12,050 nt of DNA from an uncultured Pseudomonadota bacterium (lineage in GTDB: Bacteria; BMS3Abin14). How positions within the stretch are numbered: position 1 is the stretch's first letter; every line of letters starts with the position of its first letter. Made by a program: the position numbers and the translations under genes. The notes under the pieces are model-generated. The model searched no databases and was not told where the DNA came from. It saw nothing but the letters and a program-made list of their open reading frames with translations. Location: NCBI GenBank assembly GCA_964454175.1, contig CAYVSA010000028.1:1-12050 (forward strand), written 5' to 3'. Positions 269 to 10,680 of this stretch are shown here, one piece after another.

Positions 269-1288
269 TTACCTTTGCTTTTCCCTGTTCAGTGAACTTG
301 CAGCCTTCTTGACACTGGGAAGAAGTTTTAGTCCCTTCGATGCCAGCAGGTCCATCATTCTTTCTGCCGTATCGCTGTCATAAGGCCTGAGGATGTAGGC
401 CCTGCGGTAGATTTTTTCAGCATACGGCTCTAGCCTGTCAACAACCTGCCTCTTCTGGCCAGCAGACAGGAGAGGAATGAAAGGCTCGATCAGCCTTGAA
501 GAGCCCTCAATATCGCCGTCACTGAAACGCCTTTCGGATGCCTTCAGGGCTTTTGCCAGTGATACGCTGATATCGTCTTGCTGATGAGAAAAAGATGAAG
601 AGTCCATCTTTAAGCGGAAATGAGTTGCCTTTTTGATGCTGTTTCTATCGGTAGGTGACTGTTTGTGTAAACCCTTTTTTCTGGTCAAGGTCGGTTCAAT
701 GGCCGGTATTTTGGTATTTGCAGATCGGACCGAAGCGATCTCCTGGGAGGAATATTTCTCAAGCTGTGAACCGAGACTCACTGTAACTTCAGGGTTTGCG
801 AGCCCGTGATACTGTGGTTTGGGGGGGTGCGCCATAGCCATCAGAACAGAAAGTGCGGCTGTTCCAATGAGGATTAGAATTATCGTTCTGCCTCTGTTTG
901 CCGTATCACCTGCCGGATAGTTCCTGGTGGAGTCTCCTCTTTCCAGCAGGTAGAGTTTATAACCGAAGAATTTTACCGCCTCGCCCGTCTTGATCTGGTG
1001 GACAAGCCCCCTATCGTTTTCCTTTGCAGAAAATCTTAAAAGCGGCAGCGGATCTGTCACTAATTCGGCAGCTTTTCGAGGGAAATAGGGATCATCAATT
1101 TGAAGGTCAGATTCCGATGAACGCCCAATTAAAACCTTGGGACCGGTTGGTCTGTGAGTAAACTTGACATTTCTTCCCCTCTTAAGAATCACGAAATACC
1201 GTGACCCCTTGCTGTTCTCACCCAGGTCCAGTGGCTGAAAAATTTCGGTAACTTCCTCAAAACCAGACAATTTATTTTTCTGATTCAT
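269..1288 (-). CDS. Membrane-anchored protein with degenerate N-terminal FHA-like domain and helical C-terminus; last gene of the Tad operon
   Basis: VLIGRSSESDLQIDDPYFPRKAAEL resembles the FHA start (G-R...D-l-x-i-x-D). One hydrophobic segment (TIILILIGTAALSVLMAMA) is followed by a low-complexity linker and an amphipathic helical end. ATG at 1288 has AGGA upstream and overlaps the previous stop; the ORF-track start is TTG at 1318. Confidence 0.65.
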   Translation of the reverse strand: MNQKNKLSGFEEVTEIFQPLDLGENSKGSRYFVILKRGRNVKFTHRPTGPKVLIGRSSESDLQIDDPYFPRKAAELVTDPLPLLRFSAKENDRGLVHQIKTGEAVKFFGYKLYLLERGDSTRNYPAGDTANRGRTIILILIGTAALSVLMAMAHPPKPQYHGLANPEVTVSLGSQLEKYSSQEIASVRSANTKIPAIEPTLTRKKGLHKQSPTDRNSIKKATHFRLKMDSSSFSHQQDDISVSLAKALKASERRFSDGDIEGSSRLIEPFIPLLSAGQKRQVVDRLEPYAEKIYRRAYILRPYDSDTAERMMDLLASKGLKLLPSVKKAASSLNREKQR

Positions 1289-2288
1289 CAAAGATCCTGT
1301 GTCCCTGGCGCCATTCAACCGGGATGAGTTTCCTGATCCGGGATAAATGTTTTTTAGCTTCTGGCCAGTTGTCTGATGATCGAAACGATCTGACTATTAA
1401 TAACTCCCTGTCCAGAAACTGTCTGATTCTCTCCTCGGCTTTTTTCCTTTCGTCAAACAGTTTAATTGCCAGCCTGGTGTCCTTCTCTGCTTTTAACCTG
1501 GATGAAAGGCGCTGGAGAACGATCCAGAAATATGGGCTATCTGTTTTCATGTCAGCAAGCCTGAAAAAATCACCTTCATTAATCTGTGAACGTTTACCAC
1601 CGGAATTTGACTCAAGGGCACCGGGGATAAACTTCACATCCCTGACTCCCCAGTGCATTAAAGTATTTGAAGTTTGGATCGTCCTGAACTCAATAATTCG
1701 CGGATCTTGTGTCCTGGATTCCGGGATCTCAATTGCCAATTCCTGTCCCCAACCCTCAGGTATTGGAATTCTGTTTGCGTAAGGTATACCGTCAAGAAGT
1801 AAGAGTAGAGATCCTCCGGCTATTTCACCACCAGGGGTAAAAAGGATTTTTCCGCTATTTTCATGGGAAGCTGGAATAACAACTCTGAGTCCGTAGGGGT
1901 GGCTTTTATCCTGCCTGCAGAATCCGAAAGTTTCATCAGCAGGAAGGCTGACTGGAGTCCAGTCCTGCTTTGGAACTTTATCGTGGAATGCAGAAAACCA
2001 GGTTATACAAAATAAAACCAGCGACACCATTATGAGCGGTATAGTCCTTATGTGGAGTATCTTGATCAGAATATCATGGGATGAATAACTGTGATCGTTT
2101 ATCCTGTTCCCTGATGTCTGGTCTTTGATGATACAGCCATTTTTGACATCAAGACTCCCGTGCTTATTTCCCGGGAAATTCACGATCACATCATCGTCTT
2201 TGGTACAGCCTATTGAAAACGTGCTCTTTCCAACGAAGTGAAATCGTCTTGACCTAAAATTTCTGATACTCACAAGGCATACACCCAT
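1272..2288 (-). CDS. Single-pass membrane protein with highly degenerate FHA-like N-terminus, beta-rich middle domain and TPR-like helical C-terminus
   Basis: 338-aa ORF coupled to the DUF192 gene by a TAATG overlap at 2288. FSIGCTKDDDVIV occupies the FHA 'IGR...D+.+' position. TM segment IPLIMVSLVLFCITWFSAF; helical end WPEAKKHLSRIRKLIP. Confidence 0.6.
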   Translation of the reverse strand: MGVCLVSIRNFRSRRFHFVGKSTFSIGCTKDDDVIVNFPGNKHGSLDVKNGCIIKDQTSGNRINDHSYSSHDILIKILHIRTIPLIMVSLVLFCITWFSAFHDKVPKQDWTPVSLPADETFGFCRQDKSHPYGLRVVIPASHENSGKILFTPGGEIAGGSLLLLLDGIPYANRIPIPEGWGQELAIEIPESRTQDPRIIEFRTIQTSNTLMHWGVRDVKFIPGALESNSGGKRSQINEGDFFRLADMKTDSPYFWIVLQRLSSRLKAEKDTRLAIKLFDERKKAEERIRQFLDRELLIVRSFRSSDNWPEAKKHLSRIRKLIPVEWRQGHRIFDESEK

Positions 2289-2647
2289 TATTTGATCCTC
2301 GCGGAAAGTGAAAAACGGTCTCCAGGCTCCGCATCAAACACAGTGTGTGATGGTTTGTGAGGGACTTCCAGAATGTGTCTGCAACCGCTGGGTGATGAAG
2401 GGATTCGGTTAGGCTTTACACATCGCTCTATCGTTAATAGATGAAGGCCGCTGTCAAAAAAATAAAGATCTAATAAAAAGGACATCCCGAATGTGTGTAT
2501 CCTTGGGGTGTTAATGAGCAGTATGCCATTACAATTTACTACCTGATTTTGCAGCAGATATCCTGTCAAGCGGCCCCAGAAAGAGGTCCTGACTGATATG
2601 TTCTCGAGAATTGTTTGTCCTGTTGTAAAATTAATTAACTTCACCAC
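2288..2647 (-). CDS. DUF192 family protein
   Basis: Characteristic motifs SFWGRLTGYL, GILL...IHTFGMSFLLDLYFFD, VKPNR and HILEVP. Start is GTG at 2647, or GTG at 2644 (GTGA overlap with the tadC stop). Confidence 0.85.
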   Translation of the reverse strand: MVKLINFTTGQTILENISVRTSFWGRLTGYLLQNQVVNCNGILLINTPRIHTFGMSFLLDLYFFDSGLHLLTIERCVKPNRIPSSPSGCRHILEVPHKPSHTVFDAEPGDRFSLSARIK

Positions 2648-3381
2648 GGTGACTGCTCGAATAAAAAAACAATGATAGGGCTTAAAATAACCAGAAACGC
2701 AGCCGGAAAAATGAACAATAAAAGGGGGATAAGTAATTTAATTGAAAGAGTGTTTGCGTATTTTTCACCTTCCATTATTAAAAACTCTCTATTCCTTTCA
2801 GACTGTTCCCGCAAAATTTTCGCTATTGGGGTACCAAGTTTAATGCTCTGGGCAATAGCATCAACAAACAGACTGAACTGTGAACCACTATGATCGGACC
2901 TCATTTTCTCAATGGCCGCTTTTTTTGAAAGCCCAAGTTCCAAGTCGGTTTGCAGGGTAACAATCGCTTCTCTGATGTAGCTATTTTCAGATAAAGTCTT
3001 TTGTGCACCGAAAAAAGCAGGCAGAAGCGACTGTCCTGCCTCGACACTCAAAACCATGGAATCGAGAAGAATTGGAAGGTCCTTTCTCATATGGATTTTT
3101 TTTGTCTGACGTCTGTGCCATTTATACGCCAGACGAAGCATCGGTAACGAAATCAGACAAAGCGCCAGACCTGTGAGGACTTTGTTGATCGATGGAGAAA
3201 TAGCCAGATAAGCCATCCAGAATGCAGTGAGTGAAAAAATGGTACTTAGTAACACTGTGAACTTTCTTTTTCCCCTGCGTGATGAACAACGTTTAAAGTA
3301 AAGATCCTGAAACAGGACAAACAAACCTGATGATGCAAGAAAAATAATTATTGCTGCAAATTGATCGGATAGCCTGCTCAC
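2641..3381 (-). CDS. tadC: TadC inner-membrane platform protein (T2SSF family)
   Basis: DLPILLDSMVLSVEAGQSL, GTPIAKILREQSER and KLLIPLLLFIFPAAFLVILSP are typical of TadC. GTGA overlap with tadB. Confidence 0.9.
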   Translation of the reverse strand: MSRLSDQFAAIIIFLASSGLFVLFQDLYFKRCSSRRGKRKFTVLLSTIFSLTAFWMAYLAISPSINKVLTGLALCLISLPMLRLAYKWHRRQTKKIHMRKDLPILLDSMVLSVEAGQSLLPAFFGAQKTLSENSYIREAIVTLQTDLELGLSKKAAIEKMRSDHSGSQFSLFVDAIAQSIKLGTPIAKILREQSERNREFLIMEGEKYANTLSIKLLIPLLLFIFPAAFLVILSPIIVFLFEQSPW

Positions 3382-4040
3382 AAGAAATCCTTTTTTACAA
3401 TTTGTCGGATAATTAATGCACCCGCCAGCTGCAAAGTGAACGAGAATGACAGCACTGCTCTGCCAACACTATTTTGAAAAACTGGTACAAGAGTTTCGGG
3501 ACTGACAACAAAAAGCCCCAGCATAAACAATGCCGGCACGAGGGAAATAACAAGTCCCTGCAATCTCCCCTGAGCGCTCATCGTATCCAATTTTCGTTTC
3601 AAAGATTCACGGTCCCTGGAAACTTTTGCGAGTAGCTTTAGTGCACCAATGAGATTTGTTCCGGACCTGTGAGCAGAAGCCATGCTGAAAAATACCATCT
3701 TCAACGATCGTTGATGGCAAATTGATGCTGCCCATTCCAGGGATTCATCGATAGTGTGCCCGGACGTTACACGGTTCAGGATCAGACTAAAAACAGGCTT
3801 CAGGGCACAACTCTCAGATTTGCAAGCTTCCTCAATTGATTGCTGCAGGCTGTAACCGGCGCTCATGCCGCTTGCAACTGCCCCAAGGGCTTCAGCAAGC
3901 CCTGCCTCCATCTTTTGGGCGGCTTTTTTTGACAAAATGCCGCCCCGCTGATTTTTCAGGTGTTTGACCATTACTATGATCAGCAGAATTGAGACAGCAC
4001 CGCCTGCCAACGCAGCGCCAATAACCTCAAGAATTATCAA
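3378..4040 (-). CDS. tadB: TadB inner-membrane platform protein (T2SSF family)
   Basis: LAEALGAVASGMSAGYSLQQSI, SGTNL..AL, RKLDTMSAQGRLQGLVISLVP and a C-terminal TM followed by IRQIVK. TTG start with AAAGGA RBS; directly follows tadA. Confidence 0.9.
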   Translation of the reverse strand: MIILEVIGAALAGGAVSILLIIVMVKHLKNQRGGILSKKAAQKMEAGLAEALGAVASGMSAGYSLQQSIEEACKSESCALKPVFSLILNRVTSGHTIDESLEWAASICHQRSLKMVFFSMASAHRSGTNLIGALKLLAKVSRDRESLKRKLDTMSAQGRLQGLVISLVPALFMLGLFVVSPETLVPVFQNSVGRAVLSFSFTLQLAGALIIRQIVKKDFL

Positions 4041-5619
4041 TCAATATCCTTTCCGCCATATCATTTTCCATCGAGTCATACTCGAATAATGATCTGAGGC
4101 CGGTTCCAAGCAGCCTTGCTTTTTTTTCATCCGTGGAAAATTTGAAAATATCCTGTGTGAGTATCTGCCCGCTTTCCACGCGGTCAACTTCCATTATGTT
4201 TCTGACTACTCTCTTGCCTTCTGCGGATCTTGATATATGGACGACCATATGTATGGCGGAAGCCACCTGTTCTCTGACAATTGCGTGGGGGATATCGAGC
4301 CCCGCCATCATGGCCATTGTTTCAATACGCTTCAGAGCGTCTCTGGGAGAATTTGCGTGACACGTGGTCATGGAGCCAGCATGACCGGTGTTCATTGCCT
4401 GGAGCATGTCCAGCGCCTCTTCTCCGCGGCACTCTCCTACAATTATCCTGTCCGGTCTCATCCGCAGGGAGTTCCGGACAAGATCTCTGGTTGTGATCTC
4501 TCCGCTGCCCTCAATATTGGGAGGCCTTGTTTCAAGGCTTACGATATGGTCCTGGTGAAGATTGAGTTCTGCCGCATCTTCAATGGTAATAATTCGTTCG
4601 CTGGATGGTATGAAGCCAGCGACGATATTCATAAATGTAGTTTTCCCAGAACCAGTTCCTCCTGAGATAAGAATGTTTCTTTTTGCTAACACAGCCCGCT
4701 TTAAAAAATCAGAAGCTCTACGGGTGATCGATCCTGATTCAACGAGATCATTCATGGTCAATTTGTTCCGATTAAATTTTCTGATAGTGATAATTGGACC
4801 AGCCAGAGAAACTGGGGGCACCGCAATATTCACACGAGATCCATCGGGAAGCCTGCCGTCGGCATATGGAACACTTTCATCGACCCTGCGTCCTATAGGT
4901 GCGAGGATGCGTTCGATGATGCGATAGAGTTCCTGGTCTTCAGTGAACACTGGATCCTGTAGGCATATTTTACCGTCGATCTCCAGGTAGATCTGCTCAC
5001 AACCGTTGACCATTATTTCACTTACCTGGGGATCGAAGAGCCACTTTTCCAGGGGGCCAAGGCCCATTGACTGTGTGACGGCTTTTTCAAGAAGTTCAGC
5101 AGCATGGTTAAGGTTCATCTGGGGGGGCATAAGCTCAAGGATCTTTTTGTAGAGTAGTTTTTCAGCTCGTGAGGTGACAAGCGCATTGCTCGTATCTTTT
5201 CCCTTTTCATCGGGGACATACATGTCCGGTAAAGAATTTACAGCCTCACGGACAATGGAGTCAGCGACTTCACTGGACATCCAAGCTCCAACACAATTGC
5301 CTGTATTATGATAGGTTTGTGGGGTTGAGCAGATAGTGAATTTAAATGGTCCGATCCCGATAACCTGATCAGGGTAGAGTCGTACTCTGGTGCTAAGCCT
5401 GACTCCATCCACATATGTTCCATTTGCGCTTCTGTGATCTTCGATGACAAGATGTGATTTTTCGTCGATAACAGAGATTACCGCATGTTTTCTTGAAACG
5501 GACGAATGGTCAAGGGATATGCACGAATTACTCTCTCTCCCGATGTCCAGGACATTATTACGGGATTTTATGCGCTTGCTCTCATTTTTAGGTGCTGAAA
5601 AAGACAGAATAAATTCCAC
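4027..5619 (-). CDS. tadA: TadA/CpaF pilus assembly ATPase with N-terminal FHA domain
   Basis: ATPase motifs: [17 protein letters not shown], Walker A GGTGSGKT, Asp box [23 protein letters not shown] (Walker B) and His box [21 protein letters not shown]...VSRKHA...[17 protein letters not shown] start with AAGGAG RBS. Confidence 0.95.
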
Positions 5620-5633
5620 TGAAGCTCCTTTTT

Positions 5634-5655
5634 GGGGGCGGTTTAATCCGCCCCC
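5634..5655. other. Intergenic GC-rich stem-loop between comEA and tadA
   Basis: GGGGGCGG-TTTAAT-CCGCCCCC is a perfect 8-bp stem. On the mRNA strand it is followed by AAAAAGGAG (the tadA RBS), not by a U tract. Confidence 0.7.
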
Positions 5656-5661
5656 TCCAAA

Positions 5662-5976
5662 TTATTTGCCCTGAACAGTTATCATTTCCCTTATGCGATC
5701 GAGCAGCCTGGAGCCGAACCCTTTTACCGCCACAAGATCCTCCGTGCTTGTAAATGGCCCGTTTTCTTCCCGATAGGAAACTATCGCTCTGGCTTTAGCG
5801 CTTCCTATACCTGGCAGCGATGTAAGTTTTTCAACATCAGCTTTGTTGAGATTGATTAACTGCCGGACTTGCTGTCCATCAGCCATTAATGGTTGGGCGC
5901 TCCATGCGATCACCGCAATGCAGATAAGCAGAATAACCATTCCCGTACCGTTTCTGTTGATCAGGTTCCTTGTCAT
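5662..5976 (-). CDS. comEA: ComEA family helix-hairpin-helix DNA-binding protein with N-terminal signal/anchor
   Basis: INLNKADVEKLTSLPGIGSAKARAIVSYREENGPFTSTEDLVAVKGFGSRLLDRIREMITV is a canonical ComEA double HhH. Hydrophobic N-terminus MVILLICIAVIAWSA. AAGGAG RBS lies in the 12-nt gap after the secretin stop. Confidence 0.93.
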   Translation of the reverse strand: MTRNLINRNGTGMVILLICIAVIAWSAQPLMADGQQVRQLINLNKADVEKLTSLPGIGSAKARAIVSYREENGPFTSTEDLVAVKGFGSRLLDRIREMITVQGK

Positions 5977-5988
5977 TGTTTTCTCCTT

Positions 5989-7230
5989 TCAAAGTGTGCC
6001 GGTTCCGCCTGCCGTTTTATCCTGTTTCGCATCCCATTTATCGGGTTGTTCGGATAAGGGGTCGGACGGATCGGCAATTTGGGGGGTTAGGAAGACGAGA
6101 AGCTCCGTCTCACGCTTCCTGAAACTGTGTGATCTAAAAAGCTCTCCGACGATCGGTATGTCTCCCAGCAGTGGTATTTTGCTAATGTTATGGGCATCTT
6201 CGCTGCTGATGAGCCCTGACAATACAGCTGTCTGGCCAGGAGCAAGGCTTAAAAAAGTTGCAACTCTTCTCGATAATATTCCCGGTATTCCATCGATAGA
6301 GTTGGCGTGGTCAATAGTGCTAATCTCTGAGGCGATCCTGGCGTGGATAAGACCGTCATCACCCAACTGCGGTTCGATTTCCAGGATAATTCCGTACCGC
6401 TTCCAGGAAACAGAGAGTTGGCCGTCTTTGTCCTTTTTTGGAATTGCGATCTCACCACCAGCCAGAAACGCTGCTTTCTCCCCGGACCTGCATACGAGTC
6501 GAGGCCGGGAAATAATGCGAGCCTTTCCGTCTTGGGCTGCCATTGAAATAGTCATTTCAAGGGACTTTTCGGGTGATAGCCGTCCCAGCCGGAACCCGCC
6601 TGGGTCACTTAAGGAAACCGAAGCCGGCCATGAGATACCGAAATCTTTGAACGCCTGTTTGTTGACTTCAGTGAAGGCGATCTCGAAAATTACCATCCTG
6701 GGGTTAGTAACCGAGTCTTCTGTGCCATCAATAAATGTTAGCCCCATGGCTTGGCTTATTTTCTGGGTGCGTTTTACGTCATCTTTTGAACTGGGCTTAC
6801 CGGAAAGGAAGAGACTTGTCCCCACAACTCGCATTGATAGATTATCAACCCCTATAGATTTCATCTGACGATTTATAAATACGGCTGAGGTTTCGAGAGC
6901 TTCCCTGTGGAGACTGCATAGATTTATGACATTGGAGAATTTCTCTGCTACCAGACGAACACGTCGTAAGTCCTGGGCCGTCAGTAGTTCACCTTTCAGG
7001 ACAGCTCCTCCAGGGAAAATTTTGATCTGGAGATTTTCAATCTCACTGATGGAATTCAGAATACCAGCCAGGCTCTGGTCCTCAATCAGGTTAAGGGGAA
7101 ATATTTGAGGTGACCTGGTCCTGAATGGCGTGTCAATTTGTGCACTCATGTTTATATCGCTTGCAGAGGACAAATGAGAGGATATGAGAACAAAACCAAT
7201 AGTAATTAGGCGACAAACTACAATCTTCAT
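5989..7230 (-). CDS. rcpA: RcpA/CpaC-type outer-membrane secretin
   Basis: Signal peptide (..SHLSSA-S) and two BON-like segments. Secretin motifs ARIISRPRLVCRSGEKAAFLAGGEIAIP, WKRYGIILEIEP and KIPLLGDIPIVGELFRS...ETELLVFLTP. Confidence 0.93.
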   Translation of the reverse strand: MKIVVCRLITIGFVLISSHLSSASDINMSAQIDTPFRTRSPQIFPLNLIEDQSLAGILNSISEIENLQIKIFPGGAVLKGELLTAQDLRRVRLVAEKFSNVINLCSLHREALETSAVFINRQMKSIGVDNLSMRVVGTSLFLSGKPSSKDDVKRTQKISQAMGLTFIDGTEDSVTNPRMVIFEIAFTEVNKQAFKDFGISWPASVSLSDPGGFRLGRLSPEKSLEMTISMAAQDGKARIISRPRLVCRSGEKAAFLAGGEIAIPKKDKDGQLSVSWKRYGIILEIEPQLGDDGLIHARIASEISTIDHANSIDGIPGILSRRVATFLSLAPGQTAVLSGLISSEDAHNISKIPLLGDIPIVGELFRSHSFRKRETELLVFLTPQIADPSDPLSEQPDKWDAKQDKTAGGTGTL

Positions 7231-7235
7231 GATCT

Positions 7236-7961
7236 TTATCTCTTCCTCTTATCCTTGGTGTGAAGTCCTGACGATTTGGAAATTGAGGCGGGGATGTCTC
7301 CGCGGTACCTTCCGAACAGTATTATTTCCCCGCCCTGTGAAGCCCGGGTTATTTCCAGAGCGAGTTCAGGAGACACGAGAAGTGTAATTGATGATGGAAC
7401 GTCGTTTATGTCACCTGCTATCTCTGCTGCATTCACCCTGGATCCGATTGCAAGAACATAGATACTCTCCCCGATCAGACTGCATTCAATCGAACCGGTA
7501 GCATCGTTAATTCTCGACCATGCGATATCAACCCGGTCTCCAGGGCTCAATAAATGGATCAGTGTCCGGGTCTCATCAGCGGGAAGTGCCAAAGCCCTGT
7601 ATCCCGGGGTGATCTTCTCGGTGGGATAATTAACACGTGGCCCTTCTGGAAGATCAGTCCACAGGATCGGGTCACCAGCGGGAACAGGGTGGGTTAATAC
7701 CCTGTCTATTATAAGTTCGAGGTCTTCGGACCGGATCGCCCTGCTGGGCAGATAGGCGATCGGAATTCGTGAAACGCGAAGATTATTCTCAGACAGTCTT
7801 TCTCCAATTTTCAGCGATTCGGAAGCAGTGAGCATCTCCATGGGCTGTTCAAGACGGGCGATATCGTGCCTGATGGATTGGAGCCTTAGTAAATAACCAG
7901 TTGCAGTCCCCAGTCCGACCAAACAGCATATGATAATTGTAGTGACTTTTTGTGTATTCAA
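7236..7961 (-). CDS. cpaB: Flp pilus assembly protein CpaB/RcpC (SAF + RcpC domains)
   Basis: N-terminal TM, SAF-like segment (LTASESLKIGERLSENNL...PVPAGDPILWTDL), ITPGYRALAL, LSPGDRVDI and SITLLVSPE.A. TTG start with AAGGA RBS. Confidence 0.9.
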   Translation of the reverse strand: MNTQKVTTIIICCLVGLGTATGYLLRLQSIRHDIARLEQPMEMLTASESLKIGERLSENNLRVSRIPIAYLPSRAIRSEDLELIIDRVLTHPVPAGDPILWTDLPEGPRVNYPTEKITPGYRALALPADETRTLIHLLSPGDRVDIAWSRINDATGSIECSLIGESIYVLAIGSRVNAAEIAGDINDVPSSITLLVSPELALEITRASQGGEIILFGRYRGDIPASISKSSGLHTKDKRKR

Positions 7962-7972
7962 CTTGAATCCTT

Positions 7973-8131
7973 TTACGGCAAAGGAAGACTGACGATCTTC
8001 ATAGCGACAGACGTAAGTTTTTCCAGAAGCTGTACCAGAGATCTAACAGTCACCAGCAAACCGACTGCCAGAATTGCGGAAGTAACGATTGTTTCTAAAA
8101 GCGATTGTCCCGATTCATTTTTTAGATTCAT
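7973..8131 (-). CDS. Small (52 aa) Flp/TadE-like minor prepilin
   Basis: MNLKNESG|QSLLETIVTSAILAVGLLVTV is a class III signal with Gly at -1, Glu at +5 and a hydrophobic helix. ATG at 8131 overlaps the preceding gene by 17 nt; the upstream part of the ORF-track call is probably spurious. Confidence 0.75.
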   Translation of the reverse strand: MNLKNESGQSLLETIVTSAILAVGLLVTVRSLVQLLEKLTSVAMKIVSLPLP

Positions 8132-8729
8132 TTTTTTTACCGCTGCTTGCCGAGTCTGGGAGTGCGTTGAAGTTAAGGTGAAACAAACTGATGCCTGACA
8201 TTTCAAGTTGGTTCATAATTCGGCCCATGGTCAGGCCGGACATGAAAACTTTTCGGACACGAATACTCGCATCTTTTTCTGAAAGGTTTTTCTGAGCCGT
8301 AAAGGACATTTTGGCTGTGGCGGATTCATAGCCTTTAAAAACTTTTAGAATGGAAAATGGCGTTCGCTCCATGGTTTTAGACCAGAGGAAATGTCCTGAT
8401 ATATCCAGTCTGTTAATGGGATTTGCCATGTGAAGCGGGAGCGGAAGGACTCTACTTTTGAAGACAGAGCGTTGTACGTCGACCTCGTCCTTGTTGAAAT
8501 AAGGGGGAAGGGAACTGGTTTGCCTGGATCTTCCCACGGCTTCCAGTAGCTTACCGGGGTTTTTATCTGAAAGCTGCAAGGTGAGGATCTCCTCCATCCA
8601 GATCGGGAGACTCGAATACGAAAGTATGCTTACCAGTGCAAATGAAACAAATAGCAGGGCCGGGATGAGAACTATTGCCTCAACCAGCGCCTGGCCAGAT
8701 AAACCATTTGCCAGATTGCGAAGGTTCAA
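8115..8729 (-). CDS. TadE/TadF-like minor pilin
   Basis: SG|QALVEAIVLIPALLFVSFALV prepilin motif (E+5, conserved Pro). TTG start with GGAGG RBS and TTGA overlap with the upstream gene. Confidence 0.8.
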   Translation of the reverse strand: MNLRNLANGLSGQALVEAIVLIPALLFVSFALVSILSYSSLPIWMEEILTLQLSDKNPGKLLEAVGRSRQTSSLPPYFNKDEVDVQRSVFKSRVLPLPLHMANPINRLDISGHFLWSKTMERTPFSILKVFKGYESATAKMSFTAQKNLSEKDASIRVRKVFMSGLTMGRIMNQLEMSGISLFHLNFNALPDSASSGKKNESKK

Positions 8730-9844
8730 TGTCTTACCTCCGCAAGGATGAATTTCGGGATGAATTTTTTTGCCGAACTCTCTTCACGCACCGGAATCAG
8801 ACGGCTGTGCCAGAAGGGATTCAGGAGATTTGCCTTTTCGTCTGGTTTGCCCGGCCTGTTGAAATAGACTGTCCCGGAACTAGCTGCAGTTAGAGTCGGT
8901 AGTTTGTTGTTTTTATCTCCAAGGAAACTGGGAAGTTTTTTCCTGGTTATAAGTGTGTGGGTAAGGGGAATCTCTGAATCTTTTAAAATGAAGATTTTTG
9001 AGGTGTTTCTGTACTTGAAATCGGTTGCTGAAGACTCTGCTGATATGGCTGTTTTCCACTTTTTGCCGAACAGGCTAAATCTTCGGACCTTCAGGATATC
9101 AAACGCCTTATGGTCGGCTGTTTCGACCCTGCTTCCTCCAGTTTTTCTAAAAGGTAGAGATAAAATCCCAGTGCCAAATCGCCAACTTCTGTTAATTGTG
9201 TGTGCATCCATGGTCTTCCTGACAAGCATCTGTGTCTGTTCGGATGAAGCGTATCTGATCCTGTTGGTCAGATTACCGATCCTCCCTATGATCTGTATCT
9301 GGACTGGGTGTATGATCCTGGCTTCAGGGTCAGAAATTTTAAGAGAATCCCTGGCCGATTTAATTGCAGCCAGGGGGAGTTCTTTGAGCATCAGGTTCCT
9401 TTCATGTGCCAGTATCCTGTTCAGGGTGCAGGCAGCAGGGATCAATACAGCGGAGATTTTTTTCAGGGCGATCTCCACAAAGTGTCCCCCTTTAGCCAAA
9501 GCCCCGGCGAGAATGGGCCCGTATCCTGGCAGGAGCTTCAGGATGCTGCTAAAGCCATCTATCAACTTCCGGCTGAAGATACTTTCACTCACCAGCGCGT
9601 TGGCCTGTGCCGTCATGGCTTCGTGGGCCAGTACGGCCCTGTTGCCTATTGCCAGGGAGTTGAGGAAGTTTGATTCGGTATTGAGAGCAGATCTGAGGGC
9701 AAGATCCGTTGCTATTTGCAACTGTATCTTTTCTTGAACGCAATAGGATAGCTTGAAGAGAATTCCGGTCAGGAAGATGCCAGCAGAAATGAAGATCAGA
9801 ACAAGCAGGGCAGTCATTCCAGATGAATTTCGAATCAAATTCAT
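8726..9844 (-). CDS. TadG-like large pilin (putative tip subunit)
   Basis: SSG|MTALLVLIF hydrophobic helix, then EKIQLQIATDLALRSA (degenerate Tad 'LQ.AADAAA' motif) and NSLAIGNRAVLA. C-terminal YFNRP...EKANLLNPFWHSRL resembles ends of TadG-like proteins. ATG at 9844 is 1 nt after the tadE stop, with AGGA upstream; the ORF track starts at 9880. Confidence 0.75.
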   Translation of the reverse strand: MNLIRNSSGMTALLVLIFISAGIFLTGILFKLSYCVQEKIQLQIATDLALRSALNTESNFLNSLAIGNRAVLAHEAMTAQANALVSESIFSRKLIDGFSSILKLLPGYGPILAGALAKGGHFVEIALKKISAVLIPAACTLNRILAHERNLMLKELPLAAIKSARDSLKISDPEARIIHPVQIQIIGRIGNLTNRIRYASSEQTQMLVRKTMDAHTINRSWRFGTGILSLPFRKTGGSRVETADHKAFDILKVRRFSLFGKKWKTAISAESSATDFKYRNTSKIFILKDSEIPLTHTLITRKKLPSFLGDKNNKLPTLTAASSGTVYFNRPGKPDEKANLLNPFWHSRLIPVREESSAKKFIPKFILAEVRH

Positions 9845-9845
9845 A

Positions 9846-10367
9846 TCAGATCCTGTGTGCCGCTGCGGCATGTGTTTCACGAAAAATATTCCAGGAAGCA
9901 GTAAGTTTGATTTTTCGATACCCGGTCACAGATCGCTTCAATGGATTCTTCTGCAGTATTTTCCCGGCCAGCGGGACTATCAGCGGAAAATCCCAGGCTA
10001 CTCTGACCTGAATCGGCAGTACTCTTTTCACAGCTCCCGGTCCATGCTCTCTTTCGTCATCGGATTTAACAGTCGCAATGGTGACCTTGCAAACAGCAGT
10101 GCCTGATGAAAGTGTGCCGGGAACAGATGCCAGGATTCTCTCAGCTGTCTTAGTCATCTCATCAAGATTAAAATCGTTGACCTCGCCAGTACGTGCTGCG
10201 CTGAATGCAGAGTACTGCAGCATGATCTTTCCCATACCGATAAGGGCCACCTGGATCATCAGAGTCGCAGTCAGAAGCAAGACAGGGAGCACGACAAGTG
10301 CTTCGATCGCTCCCTGTCCGCATTCTGAAGCTGAGAGTTTGGGGGAATTTATAAAGAGAGGAGCCAT
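9846..10367 (-). CDS. tadE: TadE family minor pilin
   Basis: CG|QGAIEALVVLPVLLL...LQYSAFSAARTG is the TadE signature; C-terminal VRVAWDFPLIVPL. Confidence 0.88.
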   Translation of the reverse strand: MAPLFINSPKLSASECGQGAIEALVVLPVLLLTATLMIQVALIGMGKIMLQYSAFSAARTGEVNDFNLDEMTKTAERILASVPGTLSSGTAVCKVTIATVKSDDEREHGPGAVKRVLPIQVRVAWDFPLIVPLAGKILQKNPLKRSVTGYRKIKLTASWNIFRETHAAAAHRI

Positions 10368-10380
10368 CAGACTGAAACCT

Positions 10381-10635
10381 CTATCGACCGGATGCCGAAA
10401 AGTCGTCCAGATTTCTACCCCGCTTCTCTCTCTCAGCTTTTTTCACAAACTTCCCTGCATCGCTGTGGGAAGAAGAACCTGCCAGCGAAGCTGTCATATT
10501 GTAAAACTGGTTCCGCACAACATCCCCAAAGAAACCCACAACTGCGATAGCTGCGATGGCTACAAGAGCGACAATAATTATGTACTCGGTCATCCCCTGT
10601 CCCTTTTCACTGTTTCTTCCGAATATCTTTCTCAT
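10381..10635 (-). CDS. flp: Flp family major pilin (84-aa prepilin)
   Basis: KG|QGMTEYIIIVALVAIAAIAVVGFFG carries the Flp E+5/Y+6 motif. Strong RBS AAAGGAGG upstream of ATG at 10635; first gene after the promoter. Confidence 0.92.
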   Translation of the reverse strand: MRKIFGRNSEKGQGMTEYIIIVALVAIAAIAVVGFFGDVVRNQFYNMTASLAGSSSHSDAGKFVKKAEREKRGRNLDDFSASGR

Positions 10636-10665: not shown

Positions 10666-10680
10666 GCAAGGGACATGCCA
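10666..10680 (-). promoter_or_regulatory. sigma54 (RpoN) -24/-12 promoter for the flp/tad operon
   Basis: Minus strand reads TGGCATGTCCCTTGC (consensus TGGCAC-N5-TTGC) with exact GG-N10-GC spacing, 30 nt upstream of the flp start codon. Confidence 0.85.

Follow-up and report, generated by a model that had tools for sequence, protein, structure and literature searches.

A comEA gene within a conserved FHA-ATPase Tad-type pilus operon suggests a candidate DNA uptake machine

The window analysed here, 12,050 bases long, forms the start of a 26.7-kb contig (CAYVSA010000028.1, assembly GCA_964454175.1) from an uncultured bacterium of the GTDB lineage BMS3Abin14; the genome is 2.17 Mb in size and 98.5% complete. 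The window carries an operon of 14 co-oriented minus-strand genes that run from flp (10737) down to orf349 (269). The core of a Tad pilus machine is present (Flp-type motif, TadA/CpaF ATPase, TadB, TadC, CpaB/RcpC and secretin), and between the secretin gene and the ATPase gene lies comEA. This gene belongs to the operon and is inherited together with it across the phylum; by analogy with described systems, the arrangement suggests that the pilus machine takes up DNA. The three genes at the centre of the argument are as follows.

5989..7230, minus strand: short Tad-type secretin, 413 amino acids (PF00263, 136.8 bits)
5662..5976, minus strand: comEA, 104 amino acids, exported helix-hairpin-helix DNA-binding type according to family matches
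4027..5619, minus strand: FHA-fused TadA/CpaF ATPase, 530 amino acids (FHA 58.3 bits, T2SSE 202.5 bits)

The secretin gene ends with TGA at 5989-5991; after 12 nucleotides (nt) that include AAGGAG, comEA starts with ATG at 5976, and 42 nt separate its stop codon (5662-5664) from the GTG start of the ATPase gene at 5619. At the secretin-comEA and comEA-tadA junctions, a simple consensus scan of the minus strand recognized neither promoter-like nor terminator-like sites. An initial annotation, made from the sequence without database searches, had given the two spacings and the common orientation exactly, all genes being on the minus strand. It had also described an intact comEA open reading frame (ORF) with an export signal and a ribosome-binding site, and this is borne out by the matches to HHH_3 and TIGR00426, by the layout of the signal as judged by eye and by the AAGGAG motif. 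The flanking secretin and TadA/CpaF-type ATPase that it named were recovered by PF00263, T2SSE and TIGR03819; the FHA domain of the ATPase had gone unmentioned.

The comEA product scores 75.5 bits against Pfam HHH_3 (cut-off 27) and 70.6 bits against NCBIfam TIGR00426, the ComEA helix-hairpin-helix (HhH) repeat region, which is above the cut-off of 53.1. The long comE model TIGR01259 is not reached (76.2 bits versus a cut-off of 152.35) and is matched at model positions 31-120 only; on sequence grounds, the window protein is the short form of ComEA, with the HhH domain alone. A protein homologue search with ComEA matched 17 proteins. In sequence, the window protein comes closest, among solved structures, to the HhH repeats of EEPD1, the ComEA domains 8dss and 8dfk, which we take to be DNA-binding, and Thermus 2duy. 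Judged by eye, the N-terminus starts with a basic n-region, followed by a hydrophobic core of 13 residues and a PLMA/D site; by inspection, the same layout with an AxA-like site is common to all ten orthologues described below, and in each it looks like a putative cleavable signal peptide.

ComEA of Vibrio cholerae is likewise small, exported and made of a two-HhH domain only, and its hairpin-1 glycines and the equivalents of its K63 and R71 are kept in the window protein (PMC3879209). Substitutions of V. cholerae G60, K63 and R71 impair DNA binding, uptake or transformation (PMC3879209). The equivalents in the window are G58, K61 and R69, mapped via motif position as given in the text of that paper and not via an alignment to the V. 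cholerae sequence. In the alignment of the ten orthologues, the glycines G56/G58 and G86/G88 and the arginine R69 are invariant, the K61 position holds lysine in nine sequences and arginine in one, and I57 is retained in eight. The position equivalent to V. cholerae K62 is occupied by A, S, T, I or V in this family, whereas the K63 equivalent is kept. The settings of the two genes differ: V. cholerae comEA is regulated together with competence genes and its product works with PilQ and the type IVa pilus (PMC3879209), while the window gene lies inside a Tad operon.

Conservation was examined in a phylum sample of 16 species genomes, all from one family. The FHA-TadA operon is present in ten of them, the window genome included; among the other nine, the FHA-TadA orthologue is full-length in seven (54-58% identity), split over contigs in one and truncated in one. 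A strong small ComEA (HHH_3 66-88 bits, frames of 103-118 amino acids) is encoded in exactly the same ten genomes and in none of the six without the operon (completeness 71, 77, 78, 80, 81 and 98%). The comEA gene directly follows the secretin gene in 10/10 cases, the order secretin-comEA-tadA is found in 9/10 and the whole 14-gene order was seen in five loci. The initial annotation had named the absence of comEA from the tad loci of relatives as evidence that would count against its proposal; the adjacency just described is the reverse of that. Since identity among the ComEA proteins is as low as 34-42% in the alignment (40-49% by local match), the place behind the secretin has outlasted a long divergence.

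In the complete genome G001 the operon occurs as two pieces 428 kb apart, and comEA ends the pilin-CpaB-secretin piece. The pieces are pseudopilin-cpaB-secretin-comEA, at about 1.27 Mb, and tadA-tadB-tadC, at about 0.85 Mb; flp was not detected. Another genome, G002, has at C1:722000-741900 only cpaB-secretin-comEA and a truncated tadA (429 amino acids), with a second tadA fragment elsewhere on the chromosome; this locus is probably decaying or rearranged.

ComEC is encoded in 15 of the 16 genomes. The six genomes devoid of the Tad operon all have it, and all six also keep matches to PilB/GspE-type ATPases. Because ComEC is found in genomes without Tad and the small ComEA is not, ComEA tracks Tad and not general competence.

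A profile built from the ten ComEA orthologues was then used to scan Tad loci of other phyla. No ComEA-like ORF was detected within ~6 kb of 80 TadA loci (mostly of Acidobacteriota and Chloroflexota), within 1.5 kb of the best 20 non-phylum secretin homologues from 400 diverse genomes, or in six larger regions, 4-19 kb in length, that surround nine of these loci. The secretin homologues of other phyla are located in cpaB-secretin-tadA operons, and in 13 of the 20 loci tadA comes directly after the secretin gene. Three of the six larger regions show flp-tadE-...-cpaB-secretin-FHA-tadA-tadB-tadC, i.e. the same order minus comEA. The FHA-TadA operons of other phyla (G039, G025, G346 and G016) have a like order and a TadA 54-58% identical over the ATPase part; there, however, the secretin gene and tadA adjoin or overlap each other, 13-14 kb of sequence are free of any ComEA-like ORF and the DUF192-orf338-orf349 tail was not detected. 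These scans agree with the view of the initial annotation that comEA stands outside the usual tad loci, and the openly searchable literature yielded no description of a comEA gene within a tad locus. Conversely, homologues of the other operon genes were found in 0/80 metagenome loci encoding the closest ComEA relatives, many of the contigs being short. In the genomes G023 and G044, stop-to-stop frames of 719-733 amino acids join a ParA/CbiA-type domain to a TadA ATPase domain; they are either TadZ-TadA fusions or two genes in one frame.

The other genes of the operon and the elements recognized in it are listed here from the promoter-proximal end.

10666..10680, minus strand: sigma-54-type -24/-12 element, TGGCAY-N5-TTGC, ~30 nt before the flp start
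10381..10635, minus strand: flp prepilin; the longest ORF reaches 10737, the probable start is ATG 10635 after GGAGG
9846..10367, minus strand: TadE-like pseudopilin (Pfam TadE 26.3 bits, cut-off 22.9), kept in orthologues
8726..9880, minus strand: orf384, possibly TadG-like (weak N-terminal match to Pfam Tad, TadE/G-like, E 0.028)
8115..8729, minus strand: orf204, pseudopilin-like (N-terminal GQALVE-type hydrophobic segment), orthologues present
7973..8206, minus strand: orf77, small pilin-like (Pfam N_methyl 21.8 bits, cut-off 21.2)
7236..7961, minus strand: CpaB/RcpC (TIGR03177 91.2 bits, cut-off 71; Pfam RcpC and SAF)
5634..5655, minus strand: GC-rich stem-loop with an 8-bp stem, a 6-nt loop and no U-tract, between comEA and the tadA ribosome-binding site
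3378..4040, minus strand: TadB-like platform protein (T2SSF 53.2 bits)
2641..3381, minus strand: TadC-like platform protein (T2SSF 44.6 bits)
2288..2647, minus strand: DUF192-like protein (PF02643 22.6 bits, under the cut-off of 27), kept in orthologues
1272..2288, minus strand: orf338, predicted bitopic membrane protein (AlphaFold2 (AF2) model, mean pLDDT 67.9)
269..1318, minus strand: orf349, FHA domain, transmembrane helix and helical-repeat domain (AF2 model)

The sigma-54-type element is the sole match to its pattern in the window, and at least one match arose in 13 of 200 shuffles. In all five orthologous loci inspected, a -24/-12-like element (TGG-N9-TGC) precedes flp in a corresponding position, and four of the five fit the full TGGCAY-N5-TTGC pattern. 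No gene for an enhancer-binding protein was identified in the window. The stem-loop between comEA and tadA has a folding energy of -19.5 kcal/mol and belongs to a set of just 61 such hairpins in the 2.17-Mb genome; an equivalent stem of 8-12 bp was found 3' of comEA in each of the eight other orthologous spacers that were folded, including that of the G001 locus, where the split falls directly behind it. Its consensus has 11 pairs, four of them with compensatory changes. The element is probably a stabiliser or a partial terminator that would divide the transcript into a flp-to-comEA half and a motor half. Rfam matched no family in the window. A search of sequencing runs for this stretch listed a single DNA run, which shares a small part of its words, and no RNA run.

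The flp product carries the Flp processing motif (GQG/MTEY), its Pfam Flp_Fap score of 21.6 bits being under the cut-off of 32.2. The pilin is near-invariant across the phylum. Its C-terminal tail is unusually long, and a K/R-rich patch conserved in this tail could make the surface of the pilus positively charged. Orthologues of orf384 are matched with E values of 1e-66 to 1e-87; no Pfam family matched orf204. In the secretin, Pfam detects the Secretin domain alone and no N-domain family, and its orthologues have 397-414 amino acids. The ATPase consists of an FHA domain (residues 26-90) and a T2SSE domain (186-464) and scores 324 bits against TIGR03819, below the equivalog level (cut-off 373). 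The residues of the FHA domain for phospho-threonine binding (G27, R28, S42, R43, H45 and N66) are invariant in eight sequences.

A DUF192 homologue comes after tadC in 18 of the 80 Tad loci of other phyla (Acidobacteriota and others) and may be a recurrent unnamed Tad accessory. The operon closes with orf338 and orf349, both conserved bitopic membrane proteins. In the AF2 model of orf338, an N-terminal beta domain is followed by a helix (82-102), a second beta domain (121-222) and a helical C-terminus; its fold matches in Foldseek are weak (CBM/BcsB-like and miscellaneous beta-sandwich). The idea that orf338 is an FHA protein was dropped, given an hhalign probability of 0.8% and the weakness of the Foldseek matches. 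For orf349, Foldseek gave 47 matches in the PDB at E <= 1e-3, FHA domains making up most of those listed, and hhalign against the FHA profile of TadA gave E 6.5e-5 with a probability of 64%; the helical-repeat domain is modelled with confidence.

The GC content of the operon is 46.6-46.8% as compared with a genome mean of 53.1% (standard deviation 1.7%, 5-kb windows), and comEA, with 47.6%, is in line with the rest. The idea of horizontal transfer as a freely mobile island was rejected: the orthologous operons of five relatives do not deviate in GC from their flanks, and relatives share the upstream neighbours of the operon, namely a beta-helix lipoprotein and a hybrid kinase.

Some of the usual Tad components are missing from this set. 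None of the 14 ORFs matches ParA, CbiA or AAA_31, so TadZ/CpaE was not found; TadD and RcpB were not detected in the operon either, and it has no TadV/CpaA prepilin peptidase, the single Peptidase_A24 gene of the genome being on contig C3. The ATPase, with its N-terminal FHA domain linked to the CpaF core, falls in class III of CpaF proteins (PMC12019362). Because the ATPase is FHA-fused, a second FHA protein is present and TadZ and TadV are absent from the operon, we regard the operon as a non-canonical tad/cpa locus that, judged by its predicted proteins, resembles Kil-type/class III CpaF systems. The Tad assignment of the initial annotation therefore stands as to the Tad genes but not as to a canonical tad/cpa type; the machine is of a Kil-like FHA kind.

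The likeness to Kil of Myxococcus xanthus was judged from described features. Kil likewise has an FHA domain fused to its single ATPase, its KilC-KilF order (secretin gene, then FHA-ATPase gene) is the same as in the window, and KilD, with FHA and TPR, parallels orf349 with FHA and helical repeats (PMC8460266). TadZ, TadD and RcpB are likewise missing from Kil. A Kil-type apparatus has a short secretin that lacks the N0 domain, and the window secretin, of 413 amino acids, may be comparable. Differences concern KilC, to which InterPro assigns BON and pilus-N domains whereas Pfam finds none in the window secretin, and ComEA, which the gene table of PMC8460266 does not list.

The window genome also encodes other competence and pilus proteins. 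ComEC, DprA and a ComF-like protein, the search for which the initial annotation had proposed, are all present. There are four secretins, three PilB/GspE-type and two PilT-type ATPases, a type II secretion system and a complete type IVa pilus, recognized from pilMNOPQ by Pfam and from pilB and pilT-pilC-pilS-pilR-pilA by gene order and length. The two other HHH_3 matches in the genome, of about 26-28 bits, are GspK of the type II secretion system (a weak match) and a membrane-anchored ComEA-like protein of 203 amino acids (contig C74:1844-2455, 25.6-27.9 bits). In this long paralogue and its eight relatives (186-245 amino acids), the place of the key lysine is taken by L or T (9/9 sequences). 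By these family matches, the Tad-linked comEA is the only canonical ComEA of the genome. Of the two other things that the initial annotation had advised looking for, a separate type IVa pilus exists and is complete, while a second ComEA exists only in a divergent form. Since PilQ and PilT are part of the type IVa pilus, and since the divergent ComEA-like protein exists as well, the Tad machine is not the sole candidate for uptake.

Taken together, the observations lead us to propose that ComEA is an integral component of an FHA-ATPase Tad-type (type IVc) pilus machine, not a bystander, and that this machine brings DNA into the periplasm; we put the chances of this proposal at about even. The steps are modelled on ComEA of V. 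cholerae and on the published Tad-dependent uptake in Liberibacter crescens and Micrococcus luteus. Transcription would probably start from the sigma-54 promoter, and pilus assembly would probably be gated by phospho-threonine signalling via the FHA domains. ComEA would be exported to the periplasm beneath the Tad secretin. Retraction of the Flp pilus through the secretin, driven by a single bifunctional CpaF-type motor, would let double-stranded DNA (dsDNA) enter; ComEA would bind it and block its back-sliding, a Brownian ratchet such as that proposed for V. cholerae. The DNA would then be handed to ComEC, ComF and DprA, encoded elsewhere, for transformation, or be degraded for nucleotides.

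M. luteus is a secretin-less monoderm whose comEA and comEC form an operon of their own. Its Flp/tad genes are required for natural transformation (PMC4322843). The other precedent is L. crescens, a diderm whose Tad pilus includes a secretin and is served by one CpaF motor; there, DNA uptake depends on Tad: a cpaF mutant shows reduced uptake of dsDNA into the periplasm, and ComEC is needed for transformation (PMC8513845). According to the same paper, L. crescens comEA (B488_RS00175) is unlinked to the tad genes, whereas the window comEA is part of the operon; the L. crescens locus has CpaE/TadZ and CpaA/TadV and is described with no mention of FHA, the opposite of the window operon; and its genome has no other type IV pilus, while in the window genome the type IVa pilus coexists with Tad. 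Since Tad-dependent uptake has been published for L. crescens and M. luteus, what is new is solely that comEA is hard-wired into the operon. The novelty that the initial annotation had seen in the arrangement accordingly holds for comEA within a Tad operon, which is unreported in the openly searchable literature, and does not hold for DNA uptake by a secretin-containing Tad machine of a diderm.

Several observations weigh against the proposed uptake machine. The FHA-ATPase, the second FHA protein and the lack of TadZ are Kil-type features, and the short secretin may be one as well. The complete type IVa pilus could do DNA uptake alone. The related genomes are not independent, so the 10/0 split in ComEA between genomes with and without the operon may represent a few events of gain or loss. 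Some proteins with HhH domains, e.g. GspK and PsbU (weak matches for ComEA), are not DNA binders. Finally, the mature ComEA domain is acidic in 9/10 orthologues (net charge -1 to -4, isoelectric point 4.8-5.7), the window copy being the sole basic one. This last point we rejected as a weak argument against DNA binding, because the aligned stretches of the ComEA domains 8dss and 8dfk are also net negative (-3 and -1, respectively, by hand count).

The alternative that survives best, though we consider it unlikely, is a Kil-like machine for contact-dependent attack or attachment (killing, predation or epibiosis), to which ComEA would be an add-on that captures DNA of the contacted cell or has another periplasmic role. 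The function of Kil is contact-dependent killing of prey, not DNA uptake (PMC8460266). Each of the likenesses set out above speaks for this explanation: the FHA-fused ATPase, orf349 as a counterpart of KilD (FHA and TPR; PMC8460266), the KilC-KilF order, the failure to detect TadZ, TadV, TadD and RcpB in the operon and the short 413-amino acid secretin without an N-domain family in Pfam. The invariant phospho-binding residues of the FHA domain fit as well, five Hanks kinases being encoded elsewhere in the genome. However, class III FHA-CpaF fusions are widespread, mostly betaproteobacterial and not predator-specific (PMC12019362), nothing in the 2.2-Mb genome of this anaerobe has been shown to indicate predation, and the Kil clusters as listed in PMC8460266 include no ComEA.

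It is also conceivable, if rather improbable, that comEA is the ordinary competence gene of the phylum and that its product serves the type IVa pilus and PilQ; its location in the Tad operon would then go back to a past insertion that has persisted for the sake of co-expression or by mere chance. For such a role a complete type IVa pilus, ComEC, DprA and a ComF-like gene are at hand, no other canonical ComEA is encoded in the genome, and the nearest ComEA relatives in metagenomes were Tad-linked in none of 80 loci. Yet ComEA is missing from all six Tad-less genomes in spite of their ComEC and PilB/GspE-type ATPases (two of these genomes are 71-77% complete and one is 98% complete), the place after the secretin is kept in 10/10 loci, even after the operon was split, and the GC content of comEA (47.6%) matches that of the rest of the operon.

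Adhesion is the classical role of Tad pili. A role of ComEA outside uptake, either as a structural or chaperone part of the periplasmic secretin/CpaB assembly or as a binder of biofilm-matrix DNA exported through the Tad secretin, would suit this adhesive function, the acidity of most orthologues, the structural use of HhH-like domains in GspK (weak T2SSK matches) and the constant adjacency of comEA to the secretin gene, but we hold it to be rather improbable as well, given a score far over the ComEA-domain cut-off, the retention of the DNA-contact lysine and arginine and the lack of any precedent found in the literature for a soluble cargo secreted by Tad.

The proposal that ComEA is an integral part of a DNA-importing Tad-type machine can be carried further, into a version that we regard as speculative and on balance doubtful. 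Here, the operon would encode an organelle dedicated to harvesting DNA and separate from the type IVa pilus: driven by sigma-54 and gated by FHA domains and Ser-Thr kinases, it would catch DNA with a K/R-tailed pilus, possibly from a contacted or killed neighbour, and an excess of ComEA made from the hairpin-delimited half of the transcript would ratchet this DNA through the short secretin. If true, this would be the first competence receptor hard-wired by the genome into a type IVc machine, and possibly a device to "contact, kill and import".

The question of DNA uptake by Tad pili in diderms rests today on L. crescens, where the link between pilus and receptor is functional only. The placement of comEA after the secretin gene, together with the joint retention or loss of comEA and the operon across a candidate phylum, is about the strongest purely genomic argument for cooperation of a Tad machine with ComEA. 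Although the organisms are uncultured, the ComEA protein is open to heterologous study. The locus offers a system for asking how a pilus with one motor and a short secretin could import DNA, and it also lets one ask whether Kil-type, FHA-gated Tad machines handle nucleic acid.

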